Positions 9,741 through 59,216 of a stretch of DNA of 64,000 nt are shown here, piece by piece (positions within the stretch are counted from its first letter, which is position 1; every line of letters begins with the position of its first letter). Position numbers and translations under genes: made by a program. The stretch comes from Terriglobia bacterium. GTDB lineage: Bacteria > Acidobacteriota > Terriglobia > 20CM-2-55-15. The stretch lies in contig CBDCKF010000002.1 of NCBI GenBank assembly GCA_965218085.1, positions 3,912,288 to 3,976,287 on the forward strand, given 5' to 3'. The notes beneath the pieces were generated by a model. It was not told where the DNA came from. It ran no database searches and worked only from the letters and a program-made list of their open reading frames with translations.

Positions 9741-9781
9741 GATACGTCACTTGTCTAAAAAGATACGTCACTTGTCTAAAA
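9741..9781. repeat. Tandem direct repeat 2 x ~21 bp (gatacgtcacttgtctaaaaa) in an intergenic region
   Basis: Seen directly at 9741-9781. Confidence 0.6.
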
Positions 9782-9946
9782 GATGATTGTCAAGTTATAC
9801 CACTCCAGTCTTGAGGTTCTTGGTCCTGCGTCGACCGGTTGATCTGGCATCGTTTGTGAGGACCTGAGAGTTTTCTTGCGTATAAATTCCATCCGTAGTT
9901 ACATTTACCCAATTTTTAGCGGTTCGGTCCGCGACACATTAAAACA

Positions 9947-9997
9947 ATGGCATCCGGCACCAAACTGGGGCACTTCGAGATCCCTACTGCCATCTGA
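9947..9997 (+). pseudogene. Ser/Thr protein kinase 5' stub (MASGTKLGHFEI...)
   Basis: Shares the conserved start and leader (tttagc...atggNatccggcaccaaact) with the stub at 25517. Stops after 16 codons. Confidence 0.4.
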
Positions 9998-10925: not shown

Positions 10926-11476
10926 AGTTCGTCCCCAAAAGACTTCACAAGACCGCGGACATCTCCAGAGGCAAGACGAGCTTCAAAGGCTGGGTCAAGC
11001 ATGTCGTTTTCGGAGTGGTGACCATCGTTGTCCTATACTTTGGAATTGGCCTGGTCACCGACCTGGTCGTCACCAACATTTCTGAGGAAACAGAAGTATT
11101 GTTGTTTTCCTGGACGTTCAGGGCGATGGCCGTGGCATCCGACGACGAAGACGAAGAACTGGATCGCGCTGAGGCGATTTTCTCGAAGCTCATTGAAAAG
11201 TCCGATGTCCGTCCCCTGCCCTACGAGCTTTTCGTGATGGACCTGCCGGACCCAAACGCACTGGCTCTTCCGGGTGGTGGTGTCGGGGTGACTCGCGGTC
11301 TGCTGGAAAGAGTCGAAAGCGAAACCGGCCTTGCCATGGTCCTGGCTCACGAACTGGGCCATCACGAGGGTCGGCACAGCTTGAAACGGCTGGGCCGAAC
11401 TCTGGCTTGGAACACCCTGCTTGGCGTGGCATTGGGCGGTAGCGTTGACCTGTCTCCCCTAGCAGCCCGTGGTTAA
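10922..11476 (+). pseudogene. M48/HtpX-like zinc metallopeptidase, 5' part, interrupted by IS5-like insertion
   Basis: HELGHHEGRH zinc motif. The reading frame runs into the IS end (IS-encoded LAARG*). The C-terminal part resumes at 12972. Confidence 0.75.
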
Positions 11477-12969
11477 AGTCCACTTCACAGATTCAAACGG
11501 ACCCGATTTCAAACGGACCCGATGCGACCGTATCGCGAAGAATGATGAGTGAAGGAGGACGGGATATGGGCATGGGACGAAAGAGACGACGCCAGGAATC
11601 GCTGTGGATCGCGACACAGGAGTTGCCGCGGACCAAAGGACACGTGTTCTACGAACGGGTGAACCGGATTCTGGAAGAAGACGGATTCGACCCGTTTGTT
11701 GAAGAAGCCTGCCAGAAGTTCTACGCCCCGGTGATGGGTCGGCCCGGTGTCGTGCCGGGTGTGTACTTTCGGATGCTGCTGGTCGGCTACTTCGAAGGGA
11801 TTGACTCGGAACGCGGCATCGCCTGGCGGTGTGCCGACTCGCTGAGCCTGCGGGAGTTTCTGGGCATTGGGCTGACCGATGGTACCCCGGATCATTCCAG
11901 CGTGTCGCGGACACGCCGGCTGATCGATCTGGAAACCCATGCCCAGGTGTTCCACTGGATGCTGGAGCGGCTGGCCGGGCACGGGTTGATCGACGGGAAG
12001 ACGGTTGGCGTGGACGCGACGACGCTGGAAGCGAACGCGGCAATGCGGTCGATCGTGCGGCGAGACACCAGGAACAGTTATGAGGACTTTCTGAAGGAGT
12101 TGGCCCACGCTTCGGGCATTGAAACGCCGACACGAGCCGAACTGGCGCGACTGGACCGGAAACGGCCGAAGAAGGGATCGAACGACGACTGGGTGCATCC
12201 CGACGACGCGGATGCGCAGATCACCAAGATGAAAGACGGCCGCACGCATTTGGCTCACAAGCTGGAACACGCTGTGGATATGAAGACCGGCGTCGTGCTG
12301 GGGGTGACGGTTCAGGGTGCTGCCACCGGGGATACGACGACAATCAAAGAGACGTTGATCCGCACGGCCGAGAACATGGAGAAGCTGGCAAGCAACCCGA
12401 AAACCGAAGCGCAGATTCGAGAAGATTGGTTTTCTGAAGTCGTCGCCGATAAGGGATATCACAGCAACGAAACGATGGTCGATCTTCGCGAATTGGGGAT
12501 ACGCACCTACATCTCGGAACCGGATCGGGGCCGTCGCCGCTGGAAGAACAAGCCGGACGAACAACAGGCTGTCTATGCCAATCGCCGTCGAATCCGTGGA
12601 GAACGCGGCAAGGAGTTGTTGCGGCATCGCGGCATGATGCTGGAACGACCCTTCGCTCACGGTCTGGAAACCGGCGGCATGCGACGGGTTCACCTTCGAG
12701 GACGGGAAAATATCCTGAAACGGATCCTGGTTCACTACGCGGCCTTGAACCTGGCGTTGATCCTGCGCCAGAAGTTCGGGCAGGGCACGCCACGGAGCCT
12801 GCAGGACCGGTCTGCGGCATACTTTGCCGCTCAAATCGTGCTCTTCTGCGTCCAGATGGCGCTTCAAACGCATCATGAACTCCGTCAGCTGGATATCGAG
12901 CCCAACGTGGCTATCGAATCCGACGTTACGACTGTATCAGAGAATCTCACTTCTGCCACGGGCTGCTAG
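11459..12969 (+). mobile_element. IS5/IS1182-superfamily insertion sequence, copy 1 (~1.5 kb)
   Basis: Terminal IR ctagcagcccgtgg / ccacgggctgctag and CTAG on both sides. Nearly identical to copy 2 at 52044..53537 apart from a 16-bp internal duplication (ttcaaacggacccga) in copy 1. Confidence 0.85.
11542..12969 (+). CDS. IS5-family DDE transposase (475 aa, intact)
   Basis: MMSEGGRDMGMGRKRRRQESLWIATQELPRTKGHVFYERVNRILEEDGFD... The stop lies inside the right IR. Confidence 0.85.
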   Translation: MMSEGGRDMGMGRKRRRQESLWIATQELPRTKGHVFYERVNRILEEDGFDPFVEEACQKFYAPVMGRPGVVPGVYFRMLLVGYFEGIDSERGIAWRCADSLSLREFLGIGLTDGTPDHSSVSRTRRLIDLETHAQVFHWMLERLAGHGLIDGKTVGVDATTLEANAAMRSIVRRDTRNSYEDFLKELAHASGIETPTRAELARLDRKRPKKGSNDDWVHPDDADAQITKMKDGRTHLAHKLEHAVDMKTGVVLGVTVQGAATGDTTTIKETLIRTAENMEKLASNPKTEAQIREDWFSEVVADKGYHSNETMVDLRELGIRTYISEPDRGRRRWKNKPDEQQAVYANRRRIRGERGKELLRHRGMMLERPFAHGLETGGMRRVHLRGRENILKRILVHYAALNLALILRQKFGQGTPRSLQDRSAAYFAAQIVLFCVQMALQTHHELRQLDIEPNVAIESDVTTVSENLTSATGC

Positions 12970-13220: not shown

Positions 13221-13248
13221 GGTCTTGTGAACCTAACCCTCAGAGGCC

Positions 13249-13301
13249 GAATCGTCCTGAACTGGTTTGAAGAACTGAAGGAACGGGTGCCGGTGCGGTA
13301 G
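13249..13301 (+). repeat. Kinase C-terminal box #1 (…IVLNWFEELKERVPVR*) with no palindrome
   Basis: Member of a six-copy family of ~55-bp coding-like boxes. Confidence 0.5.
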
Positions 13302-13382
13302 GGCAAGCGGCCACTATGCCGAGACTAGCGGAATTGGCAGAAACATTGCATCTAAGGATTGGTGCTTGGCTCGGAAAAAAGG

Positions 13383-14261
13383 TTATTTGACCAGTTCCAT
13401 TCCTTCAGCCACTATCTGGTCGACAAACTGTTGTTGCCATCCATCAATAGCCTTTCGATAACCTTCAGGATCGATGAATGCCCTGTAGCCTTCTCCCTGC
13501 TTCATACGTATTATCTTGTCACCCAGACCGTACCAGTAACCGTGTCCGCCCAGAAAAATATCCACCGGCATTTTCTTCAGCTTTTCAAATGTGCCTGCAA
13601 AGTCCTCTGCCATATTCGGATATTCGGGGTGACCCAAAACGGGCCTTGCTGCAATTCTGACACCACCTAGTAACAAGACATTATATTTTTGATTATCCTC
13701 CTCTGCGACCATGGAAAATGAAATGCACCCTCTGGTATGCCCCGGCGTAAGGTTGACAGTTAGTGCTATATCACCAAGCCGTATGACTTCCCCGTCCTCT
13801 ACGACCCGGTCAACCTTTGCAGGCCGCCAGTCGCCGCCTCTGAAGTCAGTTGCGCCCCCAGTCTCAATCACCTCTTTGTCTGCGGCAGATGCCAGGATTG
13901 ATGCCCCTGTCATTTCCTGCATACGATAATGACCTTCAACATGATCGCTATGTGCATGGGTACCAATAATTAACATGATGTCTTCTGGATCGAAACCCAG
14001 CTTTTTGATGTTATTTATAATGACCGGGACAGAGACATCATAAGCAGTATCAATGATGATATGTCCATCCGACCCCGTAACCAGGTAAGAAGCAGCCTGC
14101 ACATACTCTCCGACGAAATAAATATTGTCGACAATATTAAAGGGTTCAACGGGTACGGTTCGATCTGGATGGTCCTCGGGCGGTGAGACCGGTGCTTGCG
14201 CCAGGGCGCCCACGGAATACAGAAGAAATACCAAGATACTAATCACATCTGACTTTTTCAT
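13383..14261 (-). CDS. Subclass B3 metallo-beta-lactamase (secreted)
   Basis: Signal peptide MKKSDVISILVFLLYSVGALA. GTHAHSDH (HxHxDH) plus downstream His and GHTRGC motifs as in L1/GOB/FEZ enzymes. By eye the gene is ~47% GC against ~60% for its surroundings. Good SD (agggggaaaaaaATG). Confidence 0.8.
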   Translation of the reverse strand: MKKSDVISILVFLLYSVGALAQAPVSPPEDHPDRTVPVEPFNIVDNIYFVGEYVQAASYLVTGSDGHIIIDTAYDVSVPVIINNIKKLGFDPEDIMLIIGTHAHSDHVEGHYRMQEMTGASILASAADKEVIETGGATDFRGGDWRPAKVDRVVEDGEVIRLGDIALTVNLTPGHTRGCISFSMVAEEDNQKYNVLLLGGVRIAARPVLGHPEYPNMAEDFAGTFEKLKKMPVDIFLGGHGYWYGLGDKIIRMKQGEGYRAFIDPEGYRKAIDGWQQQFVDQIVAEGMELVK

Positions 14262-14417
14262 TTTTTTCCCCCTGACCTGTGATGGATTGTTGAGTCTATC
14301 AAAAAGCTGCGATTCCCAGCCATCGGAAGCAGAACAATCTGATGCATCCGTTCCCTTAATAGCAATTCGTTCTTGGAAGTGGCAGACGAACAGGTTAAGT
14401 GGCGGTCTGTCCCCCAA

Positions 14418-14502
14418 ATCAACGTCGTCCTGAACTGGTTTGAAGAACTGACCGAACGGGTGCCGGCGCCGTGATTTTCGAGGTCAAGTCTCGAGAAATC
14501 AT
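14418..14502 (+). repeat. Kinase C-terminal box #2 (INVVLNWFEELTERVPAP*) plus left half of the 37-bp palindrome
   Basis: gtcaagtctcgagaaatcat is the left palindrome half, ending exactly at the IS30 junction site. Confidence 0.5.
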
Positions 14503-14574
14503 GCCGGCTCAATCGGTCGATGCAACACATGCGTTAAATCGTTCGGCCGGAGTCCGAAACCCCAGCGTTTGACG
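14503..14574 (-). mobile_element. IS30-family right-end remnant (encodes transposase C-terminus …TPAERFNACVASTD*)
   Basis: gccggctcaatcggtcgatgcaacacatgcg... matches the right end of the IS30 copy at 33047. Confidence 0.5.
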
Positions 14575-14885
14575 AAGCCGTATCTGACAAATTTCGGATG
14601 CTATGGAGTTTCTGGTAGGCACACAGTCCAGTGGACCGTATCGTCGAAAAGTAAAGCGGGCCGTACCGTTGGAACGGCCCGGAAGTCGCGGCCTGAGGCT
14701 CGATGTGATCCCATCACCTTCTGTTGATGCAGTCCACTAGATACGCCCTCGAGTCGCGTTCGACGCTCGATCGCGGCCCGCCTGATCTGGCCGAGGGTCT
14801 TCGCCGCTGGTTATGGAACCTCGATGTAGTCGAACAAGGCATCCGGCGCATGGCCGAACGCCCCGTTCCAATCGCCGGATAGCTC

Positions 14886-15848
14886 TTACGGCTCGAGCGA
14901 GGCGAGGTAGGCCGAGAGATTGAGAACATCCTCGTCGGTCAAATCGGCGACCGCGCTCCGCATGAGGGCCGCATTCGCGCCACCGCGGGCACCGTGTCTA
15001 ATGTCAAACATCTGGCGCGCGAGATAGATGGGTGAGCGACCCGCGATGCTGGGAACCTGCCCGAGACCTTTTAGATCTGGGCCGTGACACAGCGAGCACT
15101 GAATAGAGCGCCCCCCGTCCGTGGTCGCAAGCTCCTTGCCCGCCGCAACGCTTCCAGGAGGGACATAGGCCATAAACGGGCTATGCGAATCCCGCAGCTC
15201 GGCCAATTCGGAATTTTCGGGAATCTCGATAATACGATTTCCGATAGGCTCCATCCCGCCACCCTGCTCGGCATGGCGCATATTGCCGCCGCCCACATAG
15301 GTTTCGGGAACCATGTCGGCCTCTATGACGGTTATCCATTTCACCGGCGGCAGCGAAGCAAAATATTCTGCGGCAATCCGCATTTCCTCTTCGGTCATTG
15401 CACCGGCGATTGCAATCATGCTCCTCGAACGTGCCGGAACAAGACTTTCACGGGTGCCTCTCTGATAGGCCATCGACTGCGCGACAATGTAGTCGGCCGG
15501 TAAACCGGCAAGGCTCGCCGATTCCGGATGTCCGGCACCGTGCGGCATGTGGCACTGGGCGCAGGCGCGCACCAGCGGTTGGCGGCCACGCGCCACCACT
15601 TCGGGCATTGGCGGATGCTCGTCCGGATACCAATCGGGCGGCGCAAACCGATCATTGATCTGCGTTTGGGTAAGCTGAAGATCGCTTCCCTCCACGCTGT
15701 GGAGCGTCCCGTCGTCCGGGCCCCGTCCGCGACCTTCCTCCATTACCGGATAGGCCCAGGGGGGAGGCTCGAAACCATCGACGGATTGGGCGACCACAGC
15801 ACCGACACAGAACGCAACGAGCACCGCAACACCGACTAGTTTCTTCAT
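14886..15848 (-). CDS. Secreted di-heme c-type cytochrome
   Basis: Signal peptide and two CxxCH motifs (CAQCH, CSLCH). Confidence 0.75.
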   Translation of the reverse strand: MKKLVGVAVLVAFCVGAVVAQSVDGFEPPPWAYPVMEEGRGRGPDDGTLHSVEGSDLQLTQTQINDRFAPPDWYPDEHPPMPEVVARGRQPLVRACAQCHMPHGAGHPESASLAGLPADYIVAQSMAYQRGTRESLVPARSRSMIAIAGAMTEEEMRIAAEYFASLPPVKWITVIEADMVPETYVGGGNMRHAEQGGGMEPIGNRIIEIPENSELAELRDSHSPFMAYVPPGSVAAGKELATTDGGRSIQCSLCHGPDLKGLGQVPSIAGRSPIYLARQMFDIRHGARGGANAALMRSAVADLTDEDVLNLSAYLASLEP

Positions 15849-16122
15849 TGGCTATTCCCTCCCCTGTTACGCTGGTTGGATTCGGGGCTAAACATTACTG
15901 GGATTTCAGCGGCTCTACAAGACCAAAAACGAAGACCTCACCCACTGCTCGCTTGAGTTGACGATACGAGCGGGTGGCGCACGGCGGGGCGTCAGATCAA
16001 CACGCGTAGTTGGTTAGCGGTTGTGCAGACAACTACAAAGAAGCGCGATTCCGGTTTGTGGCCTAACGAAGCGATGCACCGGACGGCAGCTGCGTTGCTG
16101 GCGGGATACCGCCCTAGGTCGA

Positions 16123-16206
16123 ATCAACATCGTCCTGATCTGGCTTGAAGAACTCATCGAACGGGTGCCGGTGCCGTAGAACCTTGAAATCCATTGTCAA
16201 GTCCTG
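16123..16206 (+). repeat. Kinase C-terminal box #3 (INIVLIWLEELIERVPVP*) plus left palindrome half
   Basis: Same family. Followed by tcaagtcctg. Confidence 0.5.
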
Positions 16207-16258
16207 TATCTGGACTCCTCTTTGATGCCGATTCATTCATAAAAGAGGAGTCCAGATA
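16207..16258. mobile_element. 52-bp miniature element built from two inverted IS110-type termini
   Basis: tatctggactcctcttt-[18 nt]-aaagaggagtccagata sits at the IS110 insertion position inside a palindrome copy (flanks tcaagtcctg | agggacttgaga). Confidence 0.45.
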
Positions 16259-16433
16259 AGGGACTTGAGATTTTCTTTGTTCCCAATTCCCTGCTGTGAT
16301 TAGATTTATCGAGTTTCTCGTAAAAACAAACAGCGTGATTTGTGGCGCTCAGTTCAGGTACAGAACTCAGCCCATATCGAATCACCGGCCAAAAAGCGGA
16401 GGATCCATGAAAAAATTCCTCGCTGGGTTTTTC

Positions 16434-18042
16434 CTAGCAGCCTGTCGGACTTTTGGGGCCGGAGTTGGATGTCGGGCATGCGAGAAACAGGGGCATGAGC
16501 GAACGATTTCTTGCTGTGGATCGAGACACGCCGTACTTGTTGCCGCCGTCGGTCCAGGATTGGCTTCCGGAAGAGCACCTGGCGCGGTTCGTTGTAGAGG
16601 TGGTGACGAAGCTGGACCTGCGTGACCTGGAGAAGGAGTACGCGGGGCGGGGTTCGAAGGCCTACCATCCGGAGATGCTGCTGGCGTTGCTGTTCTACGG
16701 ATACGCGACGGGAGTGTTTGCGAGCCGGAAACTGGAACAGGCGACGTGGGATTCGCTGGCGTTCCGATATATCGCGGCGAACACGCATCCAGATCACGAC
16801 ACGATCGCGGCGTTTCGGAAGCGGTTTCTGAAGCAGTTGAAGCCGTTGTTCGTGCAGATTCTTCTGCTGGCGCGGACGATGGGATTTTTGAAGCTGGGGA
16901 AGATCAGTCTGGATGGGAGCAAGGTCCAGGCGAATGCATCGAAACATAGCGCGTTGAGCTGGGGGCACGCGACGGAGTTGGAAGAACAGTTGAAGGCCGA
17001 AGTCGCGCGCCTGATGGAGTTGGCGGCGGCGGCCGACGCGGAAGTGCCGGAGGGAATGGACATCCCGGCCGAACTGAAGCGGCGCGAGGACCGGCTGAAA
17101 GCGATCGCCGAGGCGAAAGCGAAGATGGAGGCGCGCGCTGCGGAACGCCATGCGGCCGAGCAGGCCGAGTACGAGGCCAAGATGGCCCAACGCAAGGCCC
17201 GGGCCAAAGCGACCGGGAAACGGCCGGGAGGCAAGCCGCCGCAACCGCCCCAATCGGGCGTGCGCCCGAACGACCAGATCAATCTGACCGACGAGGAATC
17301 GCGCATCATGCCGGCGGGCGGGAAGAGTTTCCAGCAAGCCTATAACGTGCAGGCGGGGGTCGACACCGAGACCCTGCTCATCGTCACCGAATCCGTCACA
17401 ACGCACGCCAACGACAAACAGGAAATCGAACCGGCGCTCGGGACTCTCGATGCACTGCCTCAACCGCTGGGAAAGGTCGAGGCGATACTGGCCGACAATG
17501 GCTACTACAGCGAAGGGAACGTGAAGGCGTGCGAAACGGCCGGCGTGATGCCCTACATCGCCATGGGCCGTGAGCGCCATCATCCACCGGTGGAACAGCG
17601 TTGGACCGAACCGCCACCGCTGTCGCCCGACGCGAACCCGGTCGACGCCATGGCCCATCGGCTATCGACGATCGAGGGCCGGGCCGTTTACGCTCAGCGC
17701 AAGTCCACGGTCGAGCCGGTGTTTGGAATCGTCAAATCCGTGCTGGGATTCCGGCAGTTTCACCTCAGGGGACTCGACCCGGTATCCGGTGAATGGACAC
17801 TGGTCAGCATCGCCTGGAACCTGAAACGCCTGTTCAATCTCTCCGGGCAGGTCTCCTGCCCGACTGATCCCCGCTCCAGCCGCCCGTCCGGACGCCAAAA
17901 ACGCGACTCCGGGCTCCTGCGTGGATCTCTGGCGTCCGAATCCGGCTCTCTCTTGCGACGTCTCAGGTCGATCGTCTCGTCAATGTTCAATCACACGCTC
18001 GGAGACGCGCCGTTGCTACGGTCAAGTCCGACAGGCTGCTAG
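16434..18042 (+). mobile_element. IS1182-like insertion sequence (~1.6 kb)
   Basis: 17-bp perfect terminal IR ctagcagcctgtcggac and CTAG on both sides. Inserted in codon 10 of a cyclase-family gene. Confidence 0.8.
16495..18042 (+). CDS. IS1182/IS5-superfamily DDE transposase (~515 aa, central coiled-coil)
   Basis: MSERFLAVDRDTPYLLPPSVQDWLPEEHLARFV...DNGYYSEGN. Confidence 0.8.
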   Translation: MSERFLAVDRDTPYLLPPSVQDWLPEEHLARFVVEVVTKLDLRDLEKEYAGRGSKAYHPEMLLALLFYGYATGVFASRKLEQATWDSLAFRYIAANTHPDHDTIAAFRKRFLKQLKPLFVQILLLARTMGFLKLGKISLDGSKVQANASKHSALSWGHATELEEQLKAEVARLMELAAAADAEVPEGMDIPAELKRREDRLKAIAEAKAKMEARAAERHAAEQAEYEAKMAQRKARAKATGKRPGGKPPQPPQSGVRPNDQINLTDEESRIMPAGGKSFQQAYNVQAGVDTETLLIVTESVTTHANDKQEIEPALGTLDALPQPLGKVEAILADNGYYSEGNVKACETAGVMPYIAMGRERHHPPVEQRWTEPPPLSPDANPVDAMAHRLSTIEGRAVYAQRKSTVEPVFGIVKSVLGFRQFHLRGLDPVSGEWTLVSIAWNLKRLFNLSGQVSCPTDPRSSRPSGRQKRDSGLLRGSLASESGSLLRRLRSIVSSMFNHTLGDAPLLRSSPTGC

Positions 18043-18047
18043 TAGCG

Positions 18048-18998
18048 ATGATTACGACTATCGCGTTGTCTCGACCCGCCCTCGAACCACTTCAGGTGGG
18101 CGACAGGGAGGTGACCACAGCCCAGTACGAACAGTGGAAGACGGAGTTGTCGAACTGGGGGCGTTGGGGAGTGGACGATGAGATCGGAGCCCTAAACCTG
18201 ATCATGCCAGAGAAGCGGCTGGAGGCGGTGGCCCTGGTTGAAGAAGGGTTTTCCGTGTCCCTGGCTGGTGATGCGGATACCGTTCAGGCCATCGACAATC
18301 CCAATCCGTATGAACACGAGATGCTCCGGATCAGCGCAGACCGGTTTGGGGTCAGTTACCATGGCATCGCGCACACGCACCTCGACGCGCTGGCGCATGT
18401 GAACGAGAACGGGACTTTCTACAACGGGTACACTCCTGACGCGGACACCGTCCTCGAAACTGGCCACGAGCAGAACTCGATCCACAACCTCAAGAACGGG
18501 ATCCTGACCCGTGGCGTCCTGATCGACATTCCGAGGGTCAAGGGCGTGCCGTATCTGGAGCCGGGTACTCCAATCTACGTGGAAGATCTGGAAGCATGGG
18601 AAGAGCAGACCGGCGTGCGCGTCTCCTCCGGTGACGCGCTGTTCATCCGTACCGGTGTATGGGCTCGACGTGAGGCCGAAGGACCGTGGCTTCGCGGCCG
18701 AGCCGAGGGTGGCCGATCGGCGGGTCTCCACCCGTCCGTAATTCCGTGGTTGAAGGAGCGAGATGTCGCGTTATTGGGAAGCGATCATCCGACGTATGTT
18801 GCGCCGTCGAACCTGCCCGGAGCCGTTCATGACTTTGCGCTGCTGTATCTGGGCATCCACATGTTCGATAACTGTGATCTGGAGGCACTCGGCGACGCAG
18901 CAGCCGAGCGAAATCGATGGGAGTTTTTGCTGATGGCCGCACCGCTCCCGTTCCGCGGGGGAACCGGTTCACCATTGAACCCTATCGCCGTATTTTGA
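18048..18998 (+). pseudogene. Cyclase-family protein (kynurenine formamidase-like) separated from its first 9 codons (16407..16433) by the IS
   Basis: Joining 16407-16437 to 18043 onward restores MKKFLAGFFLVAMITTIALSRP... Confidence 0.65.
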
Positions 18999-19093
18999 CA
19001 CTGGAATGGAAAGACGTGGACAAACCGCTCTTGTCCGAATCAGGATTTCCAGGTAGACGGAAGGCCGGTACTGGCGAAGCCGCCCGCCCCCGA

Positions 19094-19198
19094 ATCAACA
19101 TCGTCCTGAACTGGCTTGGAGAACTCATCGAACGGGTGCCGGTGCCCTAGTTTTCCGAAGGTCAAGTCCTGAGAAATCATCTTCTCGGACGTTGAGAA
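19094..19198 (+). repeat. Kinase C-terminal box #4 (INIVLNWLGELIERVPVP*) plus intact 37-bp palindrome
   Basis: tcaagtcctgagaaatcatcttctcggacgttgagaa at 19163-19198. Confidence 0.55.
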
Positions 19199-19376
19199 TT
19201 TCAGCAAACGGAAGCTAGAACTCAGACCGAGACTACCCCTGTGTTACTCGAAAGCAAAGGACACGCCATCTGTCAGAAATGGAGATATGCGGACACTCTA
19301 AAACGAGTATGTTCCGTTGATGTGTGATGTCCAGGAACGATCGAATCCCACCCGGTCGTGTGAGAATAAAGTTCCG

Positions 19377-30221: not shown

Positions 30222-30330
30222 TTCTCAAGTCCTCATAAATCATGCCGGCTCAACCGGTCGATGCAACACATGCGTTTAAGGTCTCTGCCGGATTAGCGAA
30301 CTCCAGCGTCTCACGAGGTCTTCCAATCGC
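30222..30330 (-). mobile_element. Left palindrome half plus IS30-family right-end remnant (encodes …RPRETLEFANPAETLNACVASTG*)
   Basis: ttctcaagtcctcataaatcat | gccggctcaaccggtcgatgcaacacatgcg... Confidence 0.5.
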
Positions 30331-30479
30331 TTAACTTGACAGTACCCACATGCTTCCGGGCGAGGGGCATGGGCCTTGCCGCTACCTACCCGGTTCTTTC
30401 AGCCCAACCCGCACCTCCTATAATATTTCTCCAGCATTGTTTGGAGATGCTGTCCGACAATGTTCTTGGGTGGGTCTAG

Positions 30480-30722
30480 TCATGTTTTTTCCCAGTTATT
30501 CCAAACTTGGTCAAACCAATCTTCGGACACTTCTTCCTTTAGGGCCTTTGCCACGGCCCACCTGAGCTTCTTCTTCCTCCGTTTCAGTGCCTCATCGAAG
30601 TAATGCTGTGGCGGTGCCGTTCGTTCATGCAAGCAGCTTTCGCATTCGTCGACGAATCCGGGTTTCCGAGGTCTCAACGTAAACGTCCTTCCACAACAAC
30701 GGCATTTTTCTTCTGATTCCAT
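30480..30722 (-). CDS. Small zinc-ribbon-like hypothetical protein
   Basis: CRCCGRTF…CESC cysteine pairs. Confidence 0.35.
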   Translation of the reverse strand: MESEEKCRCCGRTFTLRPRKPGFVDECESCLHERTAPPQHYFDEALKRRKKKLRWAVAKALKEEVSEDWFDQVWNNWEKT

Positions 30723-31047
30723 GAGGTTCGCCTGTGGTTGGGTCTCTGAGGAATATTAATGGGCTTACCGTACCACGCGGAGAGAGCGCGGCCGAAAGGG
30801 AAAAGACCCTGCTACAGTTTCATTCTGTGGTCTTACCGACTGAACGCATCAGCTCAATCATCGGGTTTGTCTTCTGGCCCTCCACCTCTCCTTTTCAGTA
30901 GCCCGTTGTCGATTGGGACAAAACGCCGGACACTGTGACATAGACCAAGGAGATTGAAGACGACGTCGTGTTCGTGTACGTTCCTGAACACTGGGAGAGC
31001 GGCACAAGAGGTAACTGAGACTTATTCTGTCGGGAGAAACATAGGCT

Positions 31048-31620
31048 ATGAAGACCGTCGTGGAATCCATCGAGGCCGTATGTCGGCGCTACAAGTCGTT
31101 GGCTGATGCCGCGATGGCTCAATTGGACGAGACTGAACTGAGCACGCCGGGTCCTAGCAGCGGCAACTCTGTCGCAGTGATCGGGTGGCACATCGCGGGC
31201 AACCTCACTTCTCGCTTCACAGACTTTCTAACAACGGACGGTTACAAACCGTGGCGGGACCGGGAAGATGAGTTTGCAGCGAGAACACCAACGCGACAAG
31301 AGCTAACCAACCGTTGGGAGCGCGGGTGGGACACACTCTTTGATTCGCTTTCGCATCTGACCGATGACCATTTGCAGCAAACGGTGCTGCTCAGAGGAAA
31401 AGAGCTGCAAGTCAACGAGGCATTGCATCGATCACTCGGGCACATGAGCTACCACGTCGGTCAGATCGTGTACCTTGCGAAGGCGTTAAAGGGCGAGAAA
31501 TGGCGATACCTGAGCATCCCGCCGGGCGAGTCCGAGTCCTACGATCGAAAACCAACCAGTGAACGTGCAGAATCACATATTTCGAGACTGAAGGACTCCG
31601 TGGATAAGGAGTCAATTTGA
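31048..31620 (+). CDS. DinB/DUF1572-like four-helix-bundle protein
   Basis: …HIAGNLTSRFTDF…ALHRSLGHMSYHVGQIVYL… fits the DinB_2/DUF1572 pattern. Confidence 0.55.
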   Translation: MKTVVESIEAVCRRYKSLADAAMAQLDETELSTPGPSSGNSVAVIGWHIAGNLTSRFTDFLTTDGYKPWRDREDEFAARTPTRQELTNRWERGWDTLFDSLSHLTDDHLQQTVLLRGKELQVNEALHRSLGHMSYHVGQIVYLAKALKGEKWRYLSIPPGESESYDRKPTSERAESHISRLKDSVDKESI

Positions 31621-31701
31621 GCCGGGCACGCTGACGCCACTGACACTGCGAATAAGCGGTATAAGCAGGGTCTGACGAGTATGGCAACACCACGCGCTTG
31701 C

Positions 31702-31809
31702 ATCAACATCGTCCTAAACTGGTTTGAAGACCTGAAACCCCGGCAGAACGATTTAATGCATGTGTTGCATCGACCGGTTGAGCTGGCACATCTTGTCGGA
31801 CGTTGAGAA
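31702..31809 (+). repeat. Kinase C-terminal box #6 fused to an IS30 right-end remnant, followed by right palindrome half
   Basis: CINIVLNWFEDLK then IS30 end (…PAERFNACVASTG*) then atcttgtcggacgttgagaa. Confidence 0.5.
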
Positions 31810-31849
31810 TCCCGCCAGTGGGTTGGTGCCTCCTTGTGAGTCAGGCACG

Positions 31850-32137
31850 CTACATCCCCCTGACCTCGTAGACTCGGATGCTCGCGATATAGGGATTGTC
31901 TTGAGCGATCTTCTCTGCCTCGTCAAGGCTCTCGGCTTCGATAATCGTGTAGCCAGTGATGGACTCCATTCCCCATGGGAGGTCCTTTGTTCCAGAGGCG
32001 GAGATCTCTCGCCCGCCGCTGAAACCACCGTTATCAACCGTCCAGTCGACGATTGACTCGAACCAGGTTTCCCATGCCTTCATGATCTCTGGGGTGGGCT
32101 TCTCGAATCCGTAATGGAGCAGCAAAAATTTCTTCAC
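31850..32137 (-). CDS. YciI-like small protein
   Basis: MKKFLLLHYGF…TIIEAESLDEAEKIAQDNPY matches the YciI-family pattern. Confidence 0.55.
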   Translation of the reverse strand: MKKFLLLHYGFEKPTPEIMKAWETWFESIVDWTVDNGGFSGGREISASGTKDLPWGMESITGYTIIEAESLDEAEKIAQDNPYIASIRVYEVRGM

Positions 32138-32423
32138 TTCTCTCTCCTTGTGATTGGACTATTCTCGGTCCAATTCTTGTGGGTTAGGTCACTCGACGAA
32201 GTGCCACAGCGCGGCGCCTCCCAGCCCTGAGGAGACCACCATCGACATCACTTTTCGTTACCTCAACCGATGCTTGGTTCTTCAGTTCGTGCTGCGGACC
32301 GTATTTCCCTTGCATTTCCCTTGCTGGAGCGAAAGAATTGCCACACACTCACCCCATCTCTAGTGGGAAAGGGCCTCTTATTCTTTCTATCCGGAGCGTT
32401 TCAATCACAGGCTGGAGGGCCTC

Positions 32424-32860
32424 AAATGATTAAATCAGTCAAACACACAATGATAATGATGGTTGTAGTGATGGTCGCCCTTGCGCCCATGGCGGCAGCA
32501 GAACAAGACCAGGCCAAGGCGGCGAGCCAGATCGCGACGGCCATTCAGCACGCAGGCTTGTCGGCCAGCCAGGAGGCAGCTGAGGGTGCGATGAGGCATC
32601 TCCACCACGCGGTGAACTGCATCGAGGGTCCGAACGGGTCGAATTTCGACGTCAGTGCGGGCTACCCATGTGCCGCGCAGGAGGGAAACGGAATTCTCAA
32701 CGACATGGGCGATGCTGACCGAGGGATCGCGATCCTTGTCCAGGCAGCCAACGACATCGCTGTCAACGGTGTTGAAGCGGGGGACCTCGAGTCGCTTCAA
32801 CTCGCTGCTCGCGGCGCTATCGCCATCCTGGAACTCGTAGCTGCCCAGCGCCAGCCATAG
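32424..32860 (+). CDS. Small secreted hypothetical protein
   Basis: Signal peptide MIKSVKHTMIMMVVVMVALAPMAAA. Confidence 0.4.
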
Positions 32861-33046
32861 GATGTCAGGAAGGCACTGTCAACTTAACATCGCCGGTCCG
32901 ATCTGAGGGCGTGTGGATTCAGATAGATCAAGCTGGCAAGACTGCTTCCCTCCACGCTAAAGAACGTGTCCGCAACATCTGGCAATGAACCGCTCTAAGT
33001 CTGTGTCTGGCCAGCCGAAAATGAGTCTCAAGCCCTGACAAATCAT

Positions 33047-34273
33047 TTCAGATCAACCGGTCGATGCAACACCTGCGTTTAATGTCTCTGCCGGATTAGC
33101 GAAGTCCAGCGTCTCACGGGGTCGCCCGTTGAGCTTCCTTGCGATCATATCCAAATGCTCCTGTGAGTGAACCGACAAGTCCGTCCCTTTAGGGAAATAC
33201 TGTCGGAGCAAACCGTTCGTGTTTTCGTTCGAACCCCGTTGCCAAGGACTCCGCGGATCGCAAAAGTAAACGGCAATGTCGGTGGCCAGAGTGAACCGTT
33301 TGTGATTGGCCATTTCCAATCCGCGATCCCAGGTCAGTGTTTTATAGAGTTCGGTCGGGAGTTTGTCTGCGTGTTCGATCAGCGCGTTGATGACGGTTTC
33401 AGTTTCCTTATTCGGAACCTTCACCAGCATCACGTAACGGGAGTAACGTTCGACCAATGTCGCAATGTAGGTGTTCTTCGAACCCGCTATGAGATCCCCT
33501 TCCCAGTGACCGGGAATCGCACGATCTTCGACCGAAGCCGGGCGCTCACGGATCGAGACCATGTCTTCGATCTGTCCGCCTCCATGGCCTTTCCGGCTCG
33601 CTTTTGCGGATCGGCGATTCGTGCGTTTGGTCCGCAGATACTGAGTCAGTTCTTTCTTCAGAACCCCGCGGGCCTGGATAAAAAGGCTGCGATAGATCGT
33701 TTCGTGTGACACGTGAAGCGACTCGTCATCCGGGTATGTGCGTTTCAGCCAGCCGGCGATTTGCTCGGGCGACCAGACCTGACGCAGCTTCTCTTCCACA
33801 AGCTGCCGTAAGCGGGGCCAGCCGACACGACTTTCCACGGCGCGCCCTCTCCTAGGCCGCCTCATCCGCTGCCGCTGCCCGATAGCTATCATAGCCTCCG
33901 TTACGGGAAATCTCCCGGCTCACCGTCGATGGCGCACGACCCAATCGCACGGCAATCGAACGGATCGAATCTTTGGCCGCAATACCTCTGGAGATCTCAT
34001 CACGTTCGGCCAGAGTCAGTGCCCGTGATGACCGGCAACGGGGCTGCGGACGGATGCCCCCGTACACGGCCAGTTGACGATGAATCGCCGATCCACCTCT
34101 GTCTAGAATGCGTCCGATCTCTTTGGTCGATTCTCCTCGGTGCCAGTGATTCCTCACCTCGACCAGTTCGGACGCCGTGAACCACCGTCGCTTCCTCATC
34201 TGTTTCTTCTTTCGTTTCTTCCGCATACACTTCACCGCTCCTTTTACGTAACGTGTTGCATCGACCCATTGAA
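33047..34273 (-). mobile_element. IS30-family insertion sequence (~1.2 kb) inserted at the centre of a palindrome copy
   Basis: Ends …ggtcgatgcaacac… in both orientations. Flanks tctcaagccctgacaaatcat | … | …cctcttctcggacattgagaa. Confidence 0.75.
33053..34235 (-). pseudogene. IS30-family transposase disrupted by a TGG-to-TAG nonsense and a 1-nt frameshift
   Basis: N-terminal HTH ORF ends …AADEAA* where relatives read AAW… Downstream frame shifts in a C-run (ctggccccgc) before …LVEEKLRQVWSPEQIAGWLK. Confidence 0.75.
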
Positions 34274-34642
34274 ATCACCCCTCTTCTCGGACATTGAGAA
34301 TTCGTTGATTCCAACCATTGCTTCCAACCCACTCACTCCAAAGCTAGAACTGGTTGCCACAAACCGACTTCTGGAGCGTTGAATTAGAATCGGTAAACGA
34401 AACGGTGTTTTTCGCGGGTAATCGTTGCCGGGAACAATCCAGGTCCGTCAAGAGATGACTGGGAGACCTTAGAGTACGAGCCACTTGTCCGGATAAGCGG
34501 AAATACAGGGGTTGGGAATTTCATAGCGCCTAACTCCCTGCCCTAGTAAAATTTATCCTGATTCTCGCCCTTCTCGCAGTGACGAATGATCACGACGGAA
34601 TCCGGCCCAAAAACTCAGCTTCTGTGAGATCCACGGGCGGCC

Positions 34643-37235: not shown

Positions 37236-37440
37236 TCGTAGCGGAGAATCAAATCGCCTATCTGGCCTCCGTTGTCAAGTATTCGCAGCTCTCCTGTTCT
37301 CCTTCCTGATAGATAATGTTTTCAGCAAGCTGAGCAGCGTTTGGAGTTGGGTGGCAGGTCGACTGCACCCGTATCTCCGGCCTCGTGAGTGGAACTGTTG
37401 GGTTCCGGGCCATGATGGAATTCGCTGCGCGGGTTGGTAT
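37236..37440 (-). mobile_element. Solo IS110-family (IS1111-type) 3' end remnant
   Basis: …gggtgcagtcgac…gacaggagag.tgcg..tacttgacaa…ccagata is conserved with the 3' ends of both IS110 copies. The transposase and left end are absent. Confidence 0.5.
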
Positions 37441-40337: not shown

Positions 40338-42063
40338 CCCGGATGGGTCACCAATCCGGGAATCGGCTGGTTTTCGGGTACGAGAAACGAATTGCGGCGA
40401 GTTCTGAATCCTGGAGTCGGTGAATCGGGGGAATCAGTCGTTGTTGAGGACGTGAGGTCGACTCGTTTGGCACGACAGGGACATGATTCGGCGTGTGGAG
40501 GCAGACCTCGGCCCTGTGCAGATGAAGAAGTGAGTTTTTCGGTTGTGGGTGAATCGTGTCGTCAGCAACGAAGCGGAATCGACTGCAGGTTCCGCATGAT
40601 AAGGGCGAAGGTTTCGGGATAGGGATAGGCCTCCGACATCGAGATCCAGACGTTGCGGACCGTCAGGCGGATTCGGGCGCCGATTTTGAGAAGCTTCAGA
40701 CGGATGGTCCCGCACTGGGCATGGGCCATCGCGGTATCTTTGAGCCCGAGGCGTCGCAGGGCATGCATGAGCATGTACGCAGCTGAGGAGAGATAGAGCC
40801 GGAGCTGATTGGCGCGCATGGTCGCCGCGCTGGTCCGGTCCGCAAATAGGTCCAACTGCTGTTCCTTGATACGGTTCTCCATGTCGCCCCGCGCGCAGTA
40901 GAAGTCCTCATACAAAGCGCGGGCTTGGAAGCGTTCCGGCGGCAGGGAGGTCACGATGAATCGGGGATTGGCGCCCTTGTCCAGGAACTCCGCCTTGCCG
41001 ACGACGCGTCGCGCGCGGGTCCAGCTGTTTAGAGTCCGGTACTGGAAATCCTTAAACACCCGCGCCGGTTTCCCGGTGGCGTTAAACTCCGCTTCCGCCT
41101 GAACCATTTCTTCAGCGATTTCTTGCTTGAGACGACTGTTCTTGGCCAACCCGATCACATAATCGACCGGATGGGATTCACACCAGGCGAGCAGTTCATC
41201 CCTGCAAAAGCCCGAGTCGGCCCGGATGATGATCGATACTGTGGGCCACACCTGTCGGATCTGACCGACGATGCGCTCTAACTCATCCACCGCTCCGTCG
41301 GCCCCGTCAATGTTGGAACGCCGGAGCCGGGCGCACAGCAGATGTTCTCCCGAGAAGATGTACAACGGCAGGTAGCAGTAGTGGCCGTAGTAGCCGTGAA
41401 AGAACCGTCCTTCCTGGTTGCCATGGATCGTATCGTCGGTGGCATCCAGGTCCAGAACGATCTCAGAGGGCTCCGATTCGTGGGCCGCGATAAACGCGTC
41501 GACCATCCACCGGTCGATCTTGTCGCCATCCATGGCGATCTTCTTGTACCGCTCCTGGCCATCGACCTGCTCTGCGGTCAGTTCCAACCGGTTCAGCGTG
41601 CACTTGCCTGCCAACGCCTTTCCCCGGTCTCCGGCCTGCCGCCGGTTTTCCCCCAGCGGATCGGCCTTCTCCACCGCCACGGCCAGCATCGGATCGGTCC
41701 GTAGCTGGTCGTGGTCGTTCAGGTCCTCATAGCCCAAGCACAGCCCATAAATCCGCTGGCCCAACAACTCCTTCACGCTGTGTTCGATCAACCTCGGGTC
41801 CCGGTGATCGGTAAAACACTGCTCCAGTCCGGCGATCAAACCCGTCCGCTTCTCGACTTCCCTCAACAGCAGAACACCCGCGTCGGAGGTGATCTTTCCG
41901 CCGTCGAATCGCGCCTTCACTTTCCGTTGAAAAAGTCCGTGAAATTCGAACGTGGCTTGGTTACACTCTGTTCTCATAAGGGCCGTCTCCGTTTGGGTTT
42001 TTAAACGTTTCTCGTTAAACGCTTTATGCCAAACAGGGCGGCCTTTTCTGGTCCTATCCGTGA
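40338..42063 (-). mobile_element. IS1380-family insertion sequence (~1.73 kb) nested in istA
   Basis: CTAG at 40334-40337 and 42064-42067. Imperfect terminal IR cccctatatttcacgg / cccggatgggtcacc. Confidence 0.7.
40562..41977 (-). CDS. IS1380-family DDE transposase
   Basis: MRTECNQATFEFHGLFQRKVKARFDGGKITSDAGVLLLREVEKRTGL is the characteristic IS1380 N-terminus. Confidence 0.75.
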   Translation of the reverse strand: MRTECNQATFEFHGLFQRKVKARFDGGKITSDAGVLLLREVEKRTGLIAGLEQCFTDHRDPRLIEHSVKELLGQRIYGLCLGYEDLNDHDQLRTDPMLAVAVEKADPLGENRRQAGDRGKALAGKCTLNRLELTAEQVDGQERYKKIAMDGDKIDRWMVDAFIAAHESEPSEIVLDLDATDDTIHGNQEGRFFHGYYGHYCYLPLYIFSGEHLLCARLRRSNIDGADGAVDELERIVGQIRQVWPTVSIIIRADSGFCRDELLAWCESHPVDYVIGLAKNSRLKQEIAEEMVQAEAEFNATGKPARVFKDFQYRTLNSWTRARRVVGKAEFLDKGANPRFIVTSLPPERFQARALYEDFYCARGDMENRIKEQQLDLFADRTSAATMRANQLRLYLSSAAYMLMHALRRLGLKDTAMAHAQCGTIRLKLLKIGARIRLTVRNVWISMSEAYPYPETFALIMRNLQSIPLRC

Positions 42064-58382: not shown

Positions 58383-59216
58383 ATGCGTTCCGCGCCGATT
58401 CGCACACCGTCAAAACTCACCCTTGAGCAGCGCTTGAAAGATGAGATCTTCAAAAATCGACGCCCCTTCCCTTTCGGTCTAGCCCACACCACCCACCCCG
58501 AAACGATTTTTACTGGAATACGGGAAGTCGACCAGCTATCCAAGGGCTTGCCCCGGGGCCGGATTACCGAGATCGTTGGACCCAATTCGTCAGGACGGAC
58601 CAGCCTCCTGCTCTCCACGCTGGCCCAAATCACTGATAAAGAGGAGGTTTGCGCTCTTATCGATCCGGCCGGTATTTTCGACCCTGTATCCGCAGACCAC
58701 ATCGGTGTCGATCTGGAACGACTCCTCTGGATCCGTACCCCGAAGCCCGACATCGACCAAACGCTCAAAGCGACGGATCTACTGATTCAAGGCGGTGGAT
58801 TCGGATTGATCGGAGTCGATTTCGGGGAGTTTTCTCATGGTGAAATCTGCCGCGTTCCACCCTCCTCATGGTTTCGGCTACAACGTGGGGTGCGAAACAC
58901 GCCCACCATACTGCTTTTTGTTGGACGGAAAGCATCCACCCGGACATGCGCTTCCCTGGTCCTGGGTCTGGAACTGAATCGCACTCATTGGACCCCGCGC
59001 CTCTTCGACGGAGTCTGTCCACAAGTTGAGATCCTGCGGTCCAGAATGAATCCCGGCATCAGTTGGAACCGGACACCGCAACGTTTCTTTATCCAACCCG
59101 CACACTTTCGGACTATTGCCCCTGAGCCTAATGACCCGGATGACCCCGCTGAAATTTTCCCCCTCAAAAAACAAGGAATTGAATATCTCGAATATCGAAG
59201 GAGTTCCCTGCCATGA
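58383..59216 (+). CDS. imuA: ImuA-like RecA-fold SOS mutagenesis protein
   Basis: GLPRGRITEIVGPNSSGRTSLLLSTLAQ P-loop. Stop/start overlap with imuB. Confidence 0.7.
   Translation: MRSAPIRTPSKLTLEQRLKDEIFKNRRPFPFGLAHTTHPETIFTGIREVDQLSKGLPRGRITEIVGPNSSGRTSLLLSTLAQITDKEEVCALIDPAGIFDPVSADHIGVDLERLLWIRTPKPDIDQTLKATDLLIQGGGFGLIGVDFGEFSHGEICRVPPSSWFRLQRGVRNTPTILLFVGRKASTRTCASLVLGLELNRTHWTPRLFDGVCPQVEILRSRMNPGISWNRTPQRFFIQPAHFRTIAPEPNDPDDPAEIFPLKKQGIEYLEYRRSSLP

Follow-up and report, generated by a model that had tools for sequence, protein, structure and literature searches.

What are the short kinase-like sequences and the palindrome (pal) that recur together between unrelated genes in a 64,000-nt stretch of Terriglobia bacterium DNA (the window)? 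The initial annotation favoured a discrete composite unit, in which a box encoding a Ser/Thr-kinase C-terminus and pal would act as a cassette-like gene 3′ end plus recombination site. The repeats themselves proved genuine: six boxes and roughly ten pal sites, each in + orientation, were found where they had been reported and far above chance expectation, and the window indeed holds no intact kinase. A 23-nt box core has five copies in the window with two mismatches or fewer, versus 0 expected in shuffles, and a sixth, more diverged box (27776) was recovered by repeat extension; the left and right halves of pal gave five matches each, with ~0 expected by chance. The interpretation of these repeats, however, had to be corrected.

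A blastx comparison with the intact kinases of related Terriglobia genomes identified the boxes as the last 15–35 codons of a Ser/Thr-kinase + TolB/PD40 paralog family, whose intact members (812–902 aa) terminate in ...NWFEELKERVPVP-stop, with C-terminal ends reading ...RINIALNWFEELKERVPVP or ...VVLNWFEELKERVPVP. The remnants comprise box1 (13242–13301; RGRIVLNWFEELKERVPVR-stop, 15–18 aa, 21 nt past the stop of an M48 peptidase gene), box2 (14412–14474; 20 aa, PQINVVLNWFEELTERVPAP-stop), box3 (16105–16179; 24 aa), box4 (19070–19150; 26 aa, TGEAARPRINIVLNWLGELIERVPVP-stop), the diverged box5 (27728–27826; ~31–35 aa) and box6 (31684–31736; 16–18 aa), whose 3′ side is cut by an IS30 right end. 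The box4 stub is also present in the relative locus L023 at 96% identity, and an uninterrupted counterpart of box6 in relative L007 consists of the DinB upstream sequence, a full box and pal. The boxes had been described as sharply delimited with a common start, but the window remnants begin at different codons; they appear sharply bounded because the last ~19 codons are the only C-terminal part conserved among the paralogs. Kinase C-terminal remnants left of pal in relatives measured 11–253 aa and then 822–889 aa by blastx, and the shortest beside pal went down to ~11 nt. Their lengths were skewed short, with 26 of 35 blastx-detectable remnants at or below 54 aa and others below blastx detection. 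The boxes thus appear, by sequence comparison, to be what remains of the 3′ ends of kinase genes from a large family, with lengths that form a continuum rather than a sharp start.

Intact kinases elsewhere ended with box and pal in all three cases examined in relatives (L080, L013 and L043), where the stop is followed by pal after 14–24 nt; at L080 a second pal lies 104 nt 5′ of the kinase ATG, and the order is kinase, pal, kinase in tandem. The initial annotation had reasoned that such endings, together with box starts at IS-mediated deletion endpoints, would make the boxes ordinary gene remnants; the endings were found, whereas an IS-linked endpoint was seen only for box6. Both 5′ kinase stubs were upheld, at 9947–9994 (+; 16 aa, E 6e-4) and 25517–25633 (+; 39 aa, E 9e-17), the latter ~100 nt past pal, like intact kinases, and N-terminal stubs of 16–241 aa occur right of pal in relatives. 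The reported TolB-like fragment is a kinase PD40 piece (22075–22167; 31 aa, E 2e-6), but it lies on the minus strand and is therefore inverted relative to pal. In two units (9947...13301 and 25517...27826), unrelated genes are enclosed by a kinase 5′ stub on one side and a 3′ stub on the other, an arrangement that is odd under simple decay and counts against the explanation we prefer below.

Pal is ~38 nt long and contains inverted TTCTCA/TGAGAA boxes around a 5-nt spacer. Intact copies were found at 19159–19198 (consensus) and 22256–22296 (variant), as previously noted, and a weak, degenerate pal-like copy lies at 20472–20510 (+), 45 nt past the M90 peptidase stop. The predicted fold has a 6-bp + 4-bp + 5-bp stem, two bulged bases and an ATCATC loop; on its own, pal gives a modest hairpin with bulges (−7.4 kcal/mol for DNA; ~−17 kcal/mol for RNA including flanks), and the joint fold of box and pal did not outperform shuffled sequences (z +0.2). 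Lacking a T-run, pal does not qualify as a canonical intrinsic terminator, and the copies compared displayed no compensatory variation in the inner stem, so that a structural role is only a candidate; both points count against our preferred explanation.

A scan of related genomes revealed at least 118 unique pal copies at 80 loci, on many contigs of five Terriglobia MAGs, with at least 89 in the genome of one soil bacterium. Among the copies listed, 47 of 116 assessable ones in relatives had no box, 101 of 120 were located outside any ORF of 100 aa or more, the ORF upstream of pal shared its orientation in 68 cases versus 21, and neighbouring copies were co-oriented at 27 loci versus one. Within clusters, copies were mostly 0.4–3 kb apart, the full range extending from 0.4 kb to the locus length of 8 kb. 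Right flanks consist of short recurrent non-coding modules (40–90 nt), some containing an inverted pal arm, followed by different genes, and pal often lies 25–275 nt from intact unrelated genes. Taken by its sequence and distribution, pal appears to be a dispersed, mostly extragenic, REP-like element. Like REP/BIME elements, it is short, imperfectly palindromic and present in many copies, most of them outside genes and often directly 3′ of one; it joins other short modules into mosaics and is a specific target of IS110-family and other insertion sequences (PMC11208160, PMC12288879). Unlike them, it is flanked by the coding ends of one kinase paralog family, with which it is closely associated, it lacks the terminal GTAG or CGTC tag of described REP families (PMC3733652), and a search for a RAYT-type transposase, itself a weak test, found none. 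Its neighbours are co-oriented, whereas classical REPs often occur in inverted pairs; this difference, like the RAYT result, also counts against our preferred explanation. Among the options listed initially, a terminator/UTR element of a kinase paralog family and a REP-like element are those backed by the evidence.

Pal lies 77–137 nt (240 nt once) upstream of 14 kinase starts, beside a TTGAC −35-like motif. This position, the two adjacent 17-nt inverted repeats (TTCTCA-N5-TGAGAA, twice) about two helical turns apart, and a sequence conserved without stem covariation could suggest an operator pair for a dimeric regulator of the kinase family and other genes. We consider such a role highly improbable, since most copies are 3′ of a co-oriented gene and not 5′ of one, many adjoin gene remnants or insertion sequences, and more than 100 copies together with IS targeting are typical of selfish or REP-like repeats.

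The short-skewed remnants bear on how the boxes arose: simple random deletion in a 2.7-kb gene would be insufficient, so that either an erosion bias or pal-centred patch copying is needed, which counts against our preferred explanation. Pal with its short inter-kinase spacer flanks could have been copied around the genome as a REP/BIME-like non-autonomous element or by gene-conversion patches starting at pal, with most boxes being hitch-hiked flank and not relics of kinases deleted in place. The decay of remnant lengths on both sides of pal, mostly below 180 nt, would fit such copying, as would the low and similar divergence of box and pal copies from consensus (~5–10%), the right-flank modules recurring before different genes and the proximity of pal to intact unrelated genes. 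Nevertheless, we regard it as unlikely, though the most credible alternative: the 0.64 Mb sampled yielded no enzyme that could mobilise pal, and neither target duplications nor constant outer ends were found. Box + pal spacers in relatives are of at least two types (14 nt and ~24–44 nt) and therefore point to several source genes, not one master copy, and stubs such as box4 and box6 are common to other genomes, unchanged, and therefore not recent.

The initial annotation had placed the boxes between unrelated cargo genes in a cassette-like layout. The interrupted pal copies enclose no cargo cassettes; Pfam and NCBIfam assignments identified their contents as IS110-family or IS30-family elements or their ends. 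One copy (23925–23936 and 25391–25417) is split at CCTG^AGAA by the IS110/IS1111-type element A1 (23937–25390, −; transposase 24243–25334; no target duplication), and another (27863–27889 and 29338–29349) at TTCT^CGGA by A2 (27890–29337, +; transposase 28004–28909), in the opposite orientation; joining the flanks of either element restores pal exactly. A2 is 74–76% identical to A1, and A1-like copies (91.5–92% identical) occur at related-genome loci L006, L037, L048, L058 and L075, with alignments at L006, L058 and L075 reaching into the pal halves. A segment of the A1 3′ non-coding end, CAAGTCCT, matches the left arm of pal, and CAACGTCCG in the A2 3′ end matches the right arm; the guide-like non-coding segments are GACAAGTCCTTTGG (A1) and GACAACGTCCGTGG (A2), for pal arms CAAGTCCTG and CAACGTCCG, respectively. 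Both elements resemble the IS1111 subgroup of IS110 in their DEDD + Transposase_20 transposase, a short left versus long right non-coding end (56 versus ~300 nt), subterminal inverted repeats of 12–15 bp, and site- and orientation-specific insertion without duplication, with a right-end segment that matches the target. They differ from known members in being new and in having a new target, and the two diverged copies are each matched to one of the two pal arms. Bridge-RNA-guided examples in the IS110 family include IS621 and ISPpu9 in REPs, IS4321/IS5075 in Tn21 inverted repeats, and IS1111-attC. The arm-matching 3′ segments of A1 and A2 fit RNA-guided (bridge-RNA) targeting, the putative bridge RNA having been recognised by eye. 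IS110-family elements insert in REPs, and IS1111-type members have a bridge RNA in the long right end and subterminal inverted repeats (PMC11208160; PMC12288879). At 16194–16270 (+), a pal left arm, a snap-back and an inverted pal left arm AGGGACTTGAGA form a near-perfect 72-nt hairpin (z −9.2), in which the 52-nt snap-back (16207–16258) is an IS110 end in both orientations.

Other pal copies are interrupted by IS30, a family known for insertion into palindromic hot spots. The frameshifted element at 33047–34281 (−; HTH_38 + rve, 33053–33892 and 33852–34235) is 81–82% identical to full copies in L003, L021 and L069, the L021 copy being named IS30 by family assignment; it separates pal halves 33025–33046 and 34282–34300, the latter followed by the leader of a TonB-dependent receptor gene. 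Between pal halves 30222–30243 and 31789–31809, an IS30 end pair (30244–31788; left end 30244–~30320, right end 31737–31788) brackets non-IS DNA, namely a small ORF, a DinB/DUF1572 gene and box6; 2 bp (CA) are duplicated at the pal loop, and joining the halves restores pal with this duplication. A pal left half at 14481–14501 is cut at AAATCAT by an IS30-family left terminal fragment (14502–14580, +) with no transposase behind it, and a weak match at 9822–9871 (+) combines an IS30 right-end fragment (9822–9851) with diverged pal right-arm-like sequence. The HTH_38 + rve transposase, long terminal inverted repeats and mid-palindrome insertion with a 2-bp duplication are as in the IS30 family; the window differs in retaining only one frameshifted copy and several isolated ends, one pair of which encloses non-IS DNA. 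Two IS5/IS1182-like elements lie at 11459–12969 (+; DUF772 + DDE_Tnp_1), splitting an M48 peptidase gene, and at 16436–18044 (+), inside the first codons of the cyclase gene and absent in L023. The interrupted palindromes therefore appear to be ordinary insertion sequences landed in pal.

Window segments are 92–98% identical to one related genome, yet spread over different loci there. At the 22259 pal, the left flank matches L022 and the right flank L021; L023 has an uninterrupted version of the pal that borders 33025, but with a different right neighbour. In close relatives the same segments are shuffled, with breakpoints at pal. Such breakpoints inside pal, the varied assortment of left and right modules around it and the spacing of its co-oriented clusters might suggest a site-specific recombination site, like integron attC or Acinetobacter plasmid pdif, at which gene modules are exchanged, and folded pal resembles a core site, with TTCTCA/TGAGAA boxes, a 5-nt spacer and two bulges. 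As in attC arrays, co-oriented short bulged hairpins separate segments of one to three genes, and attC sites, in a comparison that includes clusters without an integrase, are also targeted by IS1111-type elements. We nonetheless find this quite improbable. No tyrosine or serine recombinase, integron-type or otherwise dedicated, was found in the window, and in relatives, the sole tyrosine recombinases in the vicinity of pal occur in pairs with IS91 transposases and score 187 bits against a 265-bit integron-integrase cut-off. attC sites measure ~57–141 nt and end in RYYYAAC / GTTRRRY; pal is shorter, and its ends TCTCAAG / GTTGAGA miss this consensus at two and one positions. Genes lie in both orientations, the sites are scattered through the genome instead of forming a single array, many of the "modules" are remnants or insertion sequences, and repeat-mediated homologous recombination with IS activity would explain the mosaics without a dedicated system. 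The composite cassette unit thus gave way on several counts, with a blurred box edge, IS interruptions, box-free pal and no recombinase, and the kinase-UTR and REP-like parts of the initial interpretation stood.

Overall, these results position the window as what appears to be an IS-riddled, rearranged region and not a new cassette system. Its features are probably ordinary ones superimposed: a degraded kinase array and a plasticity zone around a REP-like IS landing pad. Pal would be a lineage-specific, interspersed REP-like palindrome, usually just 3′ of a co-oriented gene, occupying the ~160-nt spacer of tandem kinase + PD40 paralogs in the order stop, 14 nt, pal, ~100-nt leader, ATG. The boxes would be pseudogene remnants of kinase 3′ ends, and the two 5′ stubs their counterparts from kinase starts. 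Several insertion sequences would also prefer pal as a landing site: A1 and A2 occupy equivalent positions, oppositely oriented, in the left and right arm, and IS30-family elements the loop. Recombination between IS copies and between ~100-bp box + pal repeats, along with deletions, may have broken the kinase array and shuffled neighbouring genes into a mosaic of unrelated genes separated by pal, whose native role may be that of an RNA 3′ hairpin, an insulator between kinase genes, or a purely selfish element.

The DNA of the window is part of a long-read metagenome contig, and the repeats lie where the initial annotation had placed them, far above chance. A 23-nt core of the box, a short coding remnant of a kinase C-terminus, has five plus-strand matches in the window at up to two mismatches against 0 expected, and the palindrome (pal, two TTCTC.../...GAGAA arms) has five plus-strand matches for its left half and five for its right half, with ~0 expected for each. 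A sixth, diverged box at 27776 was recovered through repeat extension. Only two pal copies in the window are uninterrupted, at 19159–19198 and 22256–22296.

The boxes derive from kinases. A degenerate pal pattern was scanned across 185,579 species-representative genomes and gave at least 80 loci, all of which, among the matches listed, lie in five Terriglobia MAGs. Intact kinases at the pal loci of these relatives measure 812–902 aa, comprise Ser/Thr kinase and PD40/TolB parts and have the C-terminus ...NWFEELKERVPVP; at the related loci L080, L013 and L043, the distance from the kinase stop to pal is 14–24 nt. A second pal of the L080 kinase lies 104 nt upstream of its ATG, and the tandem order kinase, pal, kinase was found in relatives. 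Because intact kinases in the relatives end with the box, followed by pal, we consider box plus pal to be the normal 3′ end of this kinase family.

The extents of the kinase remnants are variable and strongly skewed to short lengths. Among the 116 assessable pal copies listed, 47 have no adjacent box, while 10 retain 11–29 nt, 35 retain 30–54 nt and 24 retain at least 55 nt of it; the remnants detected by blastx measure from 11 to 71 aa, then 125, 178 and 253 aa, and three more are whole genes. The common, sharp start claimed for the window boxes did not hold, as the six keep 15–18, 20, 24, 26, ~31–35 and 16–18 aa. Since remnant lengths vary, the apparent common start marks the onset of conservation among paralogs, preceded by a variable, Pro-rich linker. 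Right of pal, the 5′ stubs of kinases vary likewise (16–241 aa), and the window has two of them, of 16 and 39 aa, together with one inverted PD40 fragment. In annotating such genomes, caution is due with short, conserved “boxes” from C-terminal coding ends, which are pseudogene stubs and not small genes.

Three mobile-element origins of the boxes were considered and rejected. The box start (ATCAACATCGTCCTGAAC) is similar to a pal arm, as a terminal-inverted-repeat element running from the box start to the pal end would have it, but target duplications and constant outer flanks are absent in 17 full-length copies, and homology upstream of the box start often runs on into the Pro-rich linker, which counts against such an element. 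IS91-type rolling-circle capture was rejected as the source of the truncated boxes because IS91 elements occur on either side of pal and are missing at most copies. Tandem site-specific integration at a gene 3′ end was dismissed as well, given that there is no integrase, the array ends without an intact kinase, and the repeat extents are variable.

The palindrome itself is dispersed genome-wide, with at least 118 unique copies, at least 89 of them in one genome over many contigs. Relaxed matching at up to 10 mismatches of 37 gave ~180 matches in 0.64 Mb sampled, some of them duplicated by overlapping loci, and none in shuffles. Most of the listed copies (101 of 120) are not within any ORF of 100 aa or more; the upstream gene is co-oriented with pal in 68 cases versus 21. 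In 27 of 28 loci with several copies, neighbours share one orientation, at pal–pal distances between 0.4 kb and the full length of the locus. At 53 of 79 loci, pal agrees in orientation with positive local GC skew, a mild association (p = 0.003) that follows from the co-orientation of pal with genes. On its right side, pal is followed by short recurrent non-coding modules and then by differing genes; inverted pal arms occur in some of these modules, a pattern resembling BIME- or REPIN-like mosaics.

Structurally, pal is a ~38-nt imperfect palindrome with a 15-bp stem and two bulges, and its fold energy is −7.4 kcal/mol as DNA (z = −1.65 for pal alone) and ~−17 kcal/mol as RNA with flanks (z ~−2.4). 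It was not detected as a canonical terminator, lacking a T-run, and it matches no Rfam family. Covariation was not found in the inner stem, where the variable positions are independent (G–C observed 41 vs. ~40 expected) and most positions are fixed by the search pattern. A literature search found no earlier description of this repeat family from this uncultured Terriglobia lineage. The palindrome may have a native function.

Insertion sequences occupy pal at exactly defined positions, and the segments that separate its halves are such elements and not cargo. The proteins of element A1 (23937–25390, minus strand, in a left arm) and element A2 (27890–29337, plus strand, in a right arm) both carry the Pfam domains DEDD_Tnp_IS110 and Transposase_20, and score 314 and 266 bits, respectively, against a cut-off of 140 for the NCBIfam model “IS110 family RNA-guided transposase”. 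The two elements are 74–76% identical and mutually inverted. A1 is inserted at CCTG^AGAA and A2 at TTCT^CGGA, a position that the two arms have in common when read on opposite strands. The orientation of the element tracks the arm occupied; in-silico excision rejoins the flanks to an exact pal with no target duplication. Short left ends (56/114 nt for A1/A2), long right ends (~306/428 nt), subterminal inverted repeats of 12–15 bp, ends bearing GGACTCCTCT...AGAGGAGTCC, fixed orientation at a specific target and the lack of duplication place the pair in the IS1111 subgroup of the IS110 family, in which the bridge RNA sits in the long right end (PMC11208160).

The 3′ non-coding ends of A1 and A2 differ exactly at the positions at which the two arms differ. 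A right-end segment of 8–9 nt, GACAAGTCCTTTGG in A1 and GACAACGTCCGTGG in A2, matches the element's own occupied arm (CAAGTCCTG and CAACGTCCG, respectively), a correspondence seen in two variants. From this match, we infer that the right-end segments may serve as guides, and the pair looks like a natural retargeting of a bridge RNA; no structure model and no Rfam match was obtained for such an RNA. Another trace of this family is a near-perfect 72-nt hairpin at 16197–16268 (−28 kcal/mol, z = −9.2), composed of the pal left arm, ~25 nt of an IS110 end and their inverse. Within it, 16207–16258 is an IS110 end in snap-back form, and the hairpin has the look of a scar that a snap-back or inverted duplication of an IS110 copy left behind. 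Separately, a 175-nt fragment at 37259–37433, directly after a TonB-dependent receptor gene, is ~76% identical to an IS110 right end, and synteny with the related locus L031 begins at its inner edge (37426).

An IS30-family element uses pal as well: the loop of one copy holds a frameshifted element at 33047–34281 with the Pfam domains HTH_38 and rve, and the intact relative matches the NCBIfam IS30 equivalog at 286 bits against a cut-off of 80. Its inverted ends are ~50 nt long and also occur in isolation at 14502, 30244, 31737–31788 and 9822. The ends at 30244 and 31788 are flanked by a 2-bp duplication (CA at 30243/31789), so that the window copies share the two domains, the terminal inverted repeats and the 2-bp duplication with the IS30 family. 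These two ends bracket non-IS DNA, namely a small ORF, a DinB/DUF1572 gene and the truncated sixth box, with no transposase; this DNA was either captured or left in place by two nested deletions. At 9741–9786, upstream of the first kinase stub and of a fragmentary IS30 end, agatacgtcacttgtctaaaa occurs twice as a short tandem duplication.

Further elements lie around pal. Two IS5/IS1182-like elements split an M48 peptidase gene and a cyclase gene in the window, and the pal-flanking ORF families of the relatives are rich in transposases (IS256, IS1380-like, IS630, IS3, IS110, IS30, and IS91 with a tyrosine recombinase). The IS91–recombinase pairs were found near pal in five copies (L006, L007, L026, L060 and L067); the tyrosine recombinase gene precedes the IS91 transposase gene in all five and overlaps its start in four. 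At L026, the left arm of pal directly borders an IS91-type element end that carries the 14-nt palindrome CGGACAATTGTCCG, and the same end without genes adjoins pal in L036, L048 and L070 and, more diverged, in L012. Outside the flagged interval, at 40562–43424, two further transposase genes were noted (DDE_Tnp_1_4, and a Mu-like rve with Mu-transpos_C_2); the IS load is therefore high across the window.

As a short imperfect hairpin-capable palindrome, within the 20–40 nt typical of REP-like repeats, with many dispersed, mostly extragenic copies, pal resembles REP/BIME elements. It resembles them also as an IS target, with IS110- and IS30-type insertions inside it and an IS91-type end abutting it, and REP/BIME elements are known to serve as IS110 targets (PMC11208160; PMC12288879). 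In REP families, one end bears a GTAG or CGTC tetranucleotide that is conserved (PMC3733652); pal lacks this tag, beginning with TCTCAAG... and ending with ...TTGAGAA; CGTC occurs only in the interior of the right arm and only in its G variant (69 of 118 listed copies). REP elements also go with a RAYT/TIRYT (Y1 HUH) transposase that the repeats flank. No RAYT match was obtained with phmmer among six-frame ORFs of the window and the 80 loci, in a weak test with an approximate E. coli RAYT sequence as the query.

Integron attC sites have a length of 57–141 nt, the ends RYYYAAC...GTTRRRY and extrahelical bases. Pal has two bulges, with a fold of only z = −1.65 as DNA; it is ~38 nt long, and its ends mismatch the attC consensus at 2 and 1 positions. 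Folded as an attC-like single-strand structure, box plus pal does no better than shuffles (z = +0.2). No integron integrase or other recombinase was found in the window; the IS91-linked tyrosine recombinases of the relatives reach 187 bits against the 265-bit integron-integrase cut-off and are always paired with an IS91 transposase. An attC- or pdif-like recombination system acting at pal finds no positive support and is improbable.

Breakpoints fall at pal. Window segments are 92–98% identical to one related genome, yet lie in different loci there: at the pal copy at 22259, the left flank corresponds to L022 and the right flank to L021, with the homology switch inside pal. In L023, no interruption splits the pal that follows the 196-aa gene, and its right neighbour is a different one; the segment with the cyclase gene, the fourth box and pal is kept in L023 without the IS5 element, and L007 carries the sixth box intact. 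In a check of pal presence or absence at orthologous sites, cross-genome matches among pal loci were almost all insertion sequences. As to gene content, DUF6152-domain proteins (21592–21984 in the window; L018, L036, L062, L075 and others) make up the most numerous of the ORF families around pal in the relatives, with 34 members, ahead of kinases (22), and MBL-fold proteins number 12; these zones are thus common to more than one expanded paralog family. Elsewhere in the window, at 58383–60820, two successive ORFs overlap by 4 nt, the first RecA-like and the second of the impB/mucB/samB (Y-family polymerase-like) type, an arrangement that resembles an imuA–imuB mutagenesis cassette.

Overall, the best reading of the region is that of a kinase array, now broken up, and a zone of plasticity centred on a REP-like landing pad for insertion sequences, with IS- and repeat-mediated recombination plus deletion as the processes that would have made the mosaic. 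Kinase-array decay leaves unexplained both the skew of the remnants to short lengths and two units in which foreign genes lie between a kinase 5′ stub and a kinase 3′ stub, and for this reason pal-centred patches may also have been copied around the genome. In a further, unlikely reading, pal is no passive repeat but takes an active part in exchange: short patches or entire gene modules, the kinases among them, would be copied from one locus to another or traded between loci at it, via a recombinase or break-induced copying. If true, such exchange would account for the clustering of co-oriented copies, for the predominance of short kinase remnants to the left and right of pal, and for the units of foreign genes between stubs.

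On the reading as a broken-up array, the apparent new cassette system is removed, and what stands in its place is an array in which remnants of genes are found beside a REP-like repeat and insertion sequences. The pal family is abundant and marks zones of genome rearrangement. The modest interest of the region rests mainly on the arm-specific IS110 pair, whose guide-like segments track the two arms of one palindrome and provide a small comparative datum on the drift of bridge-RNA specificity.
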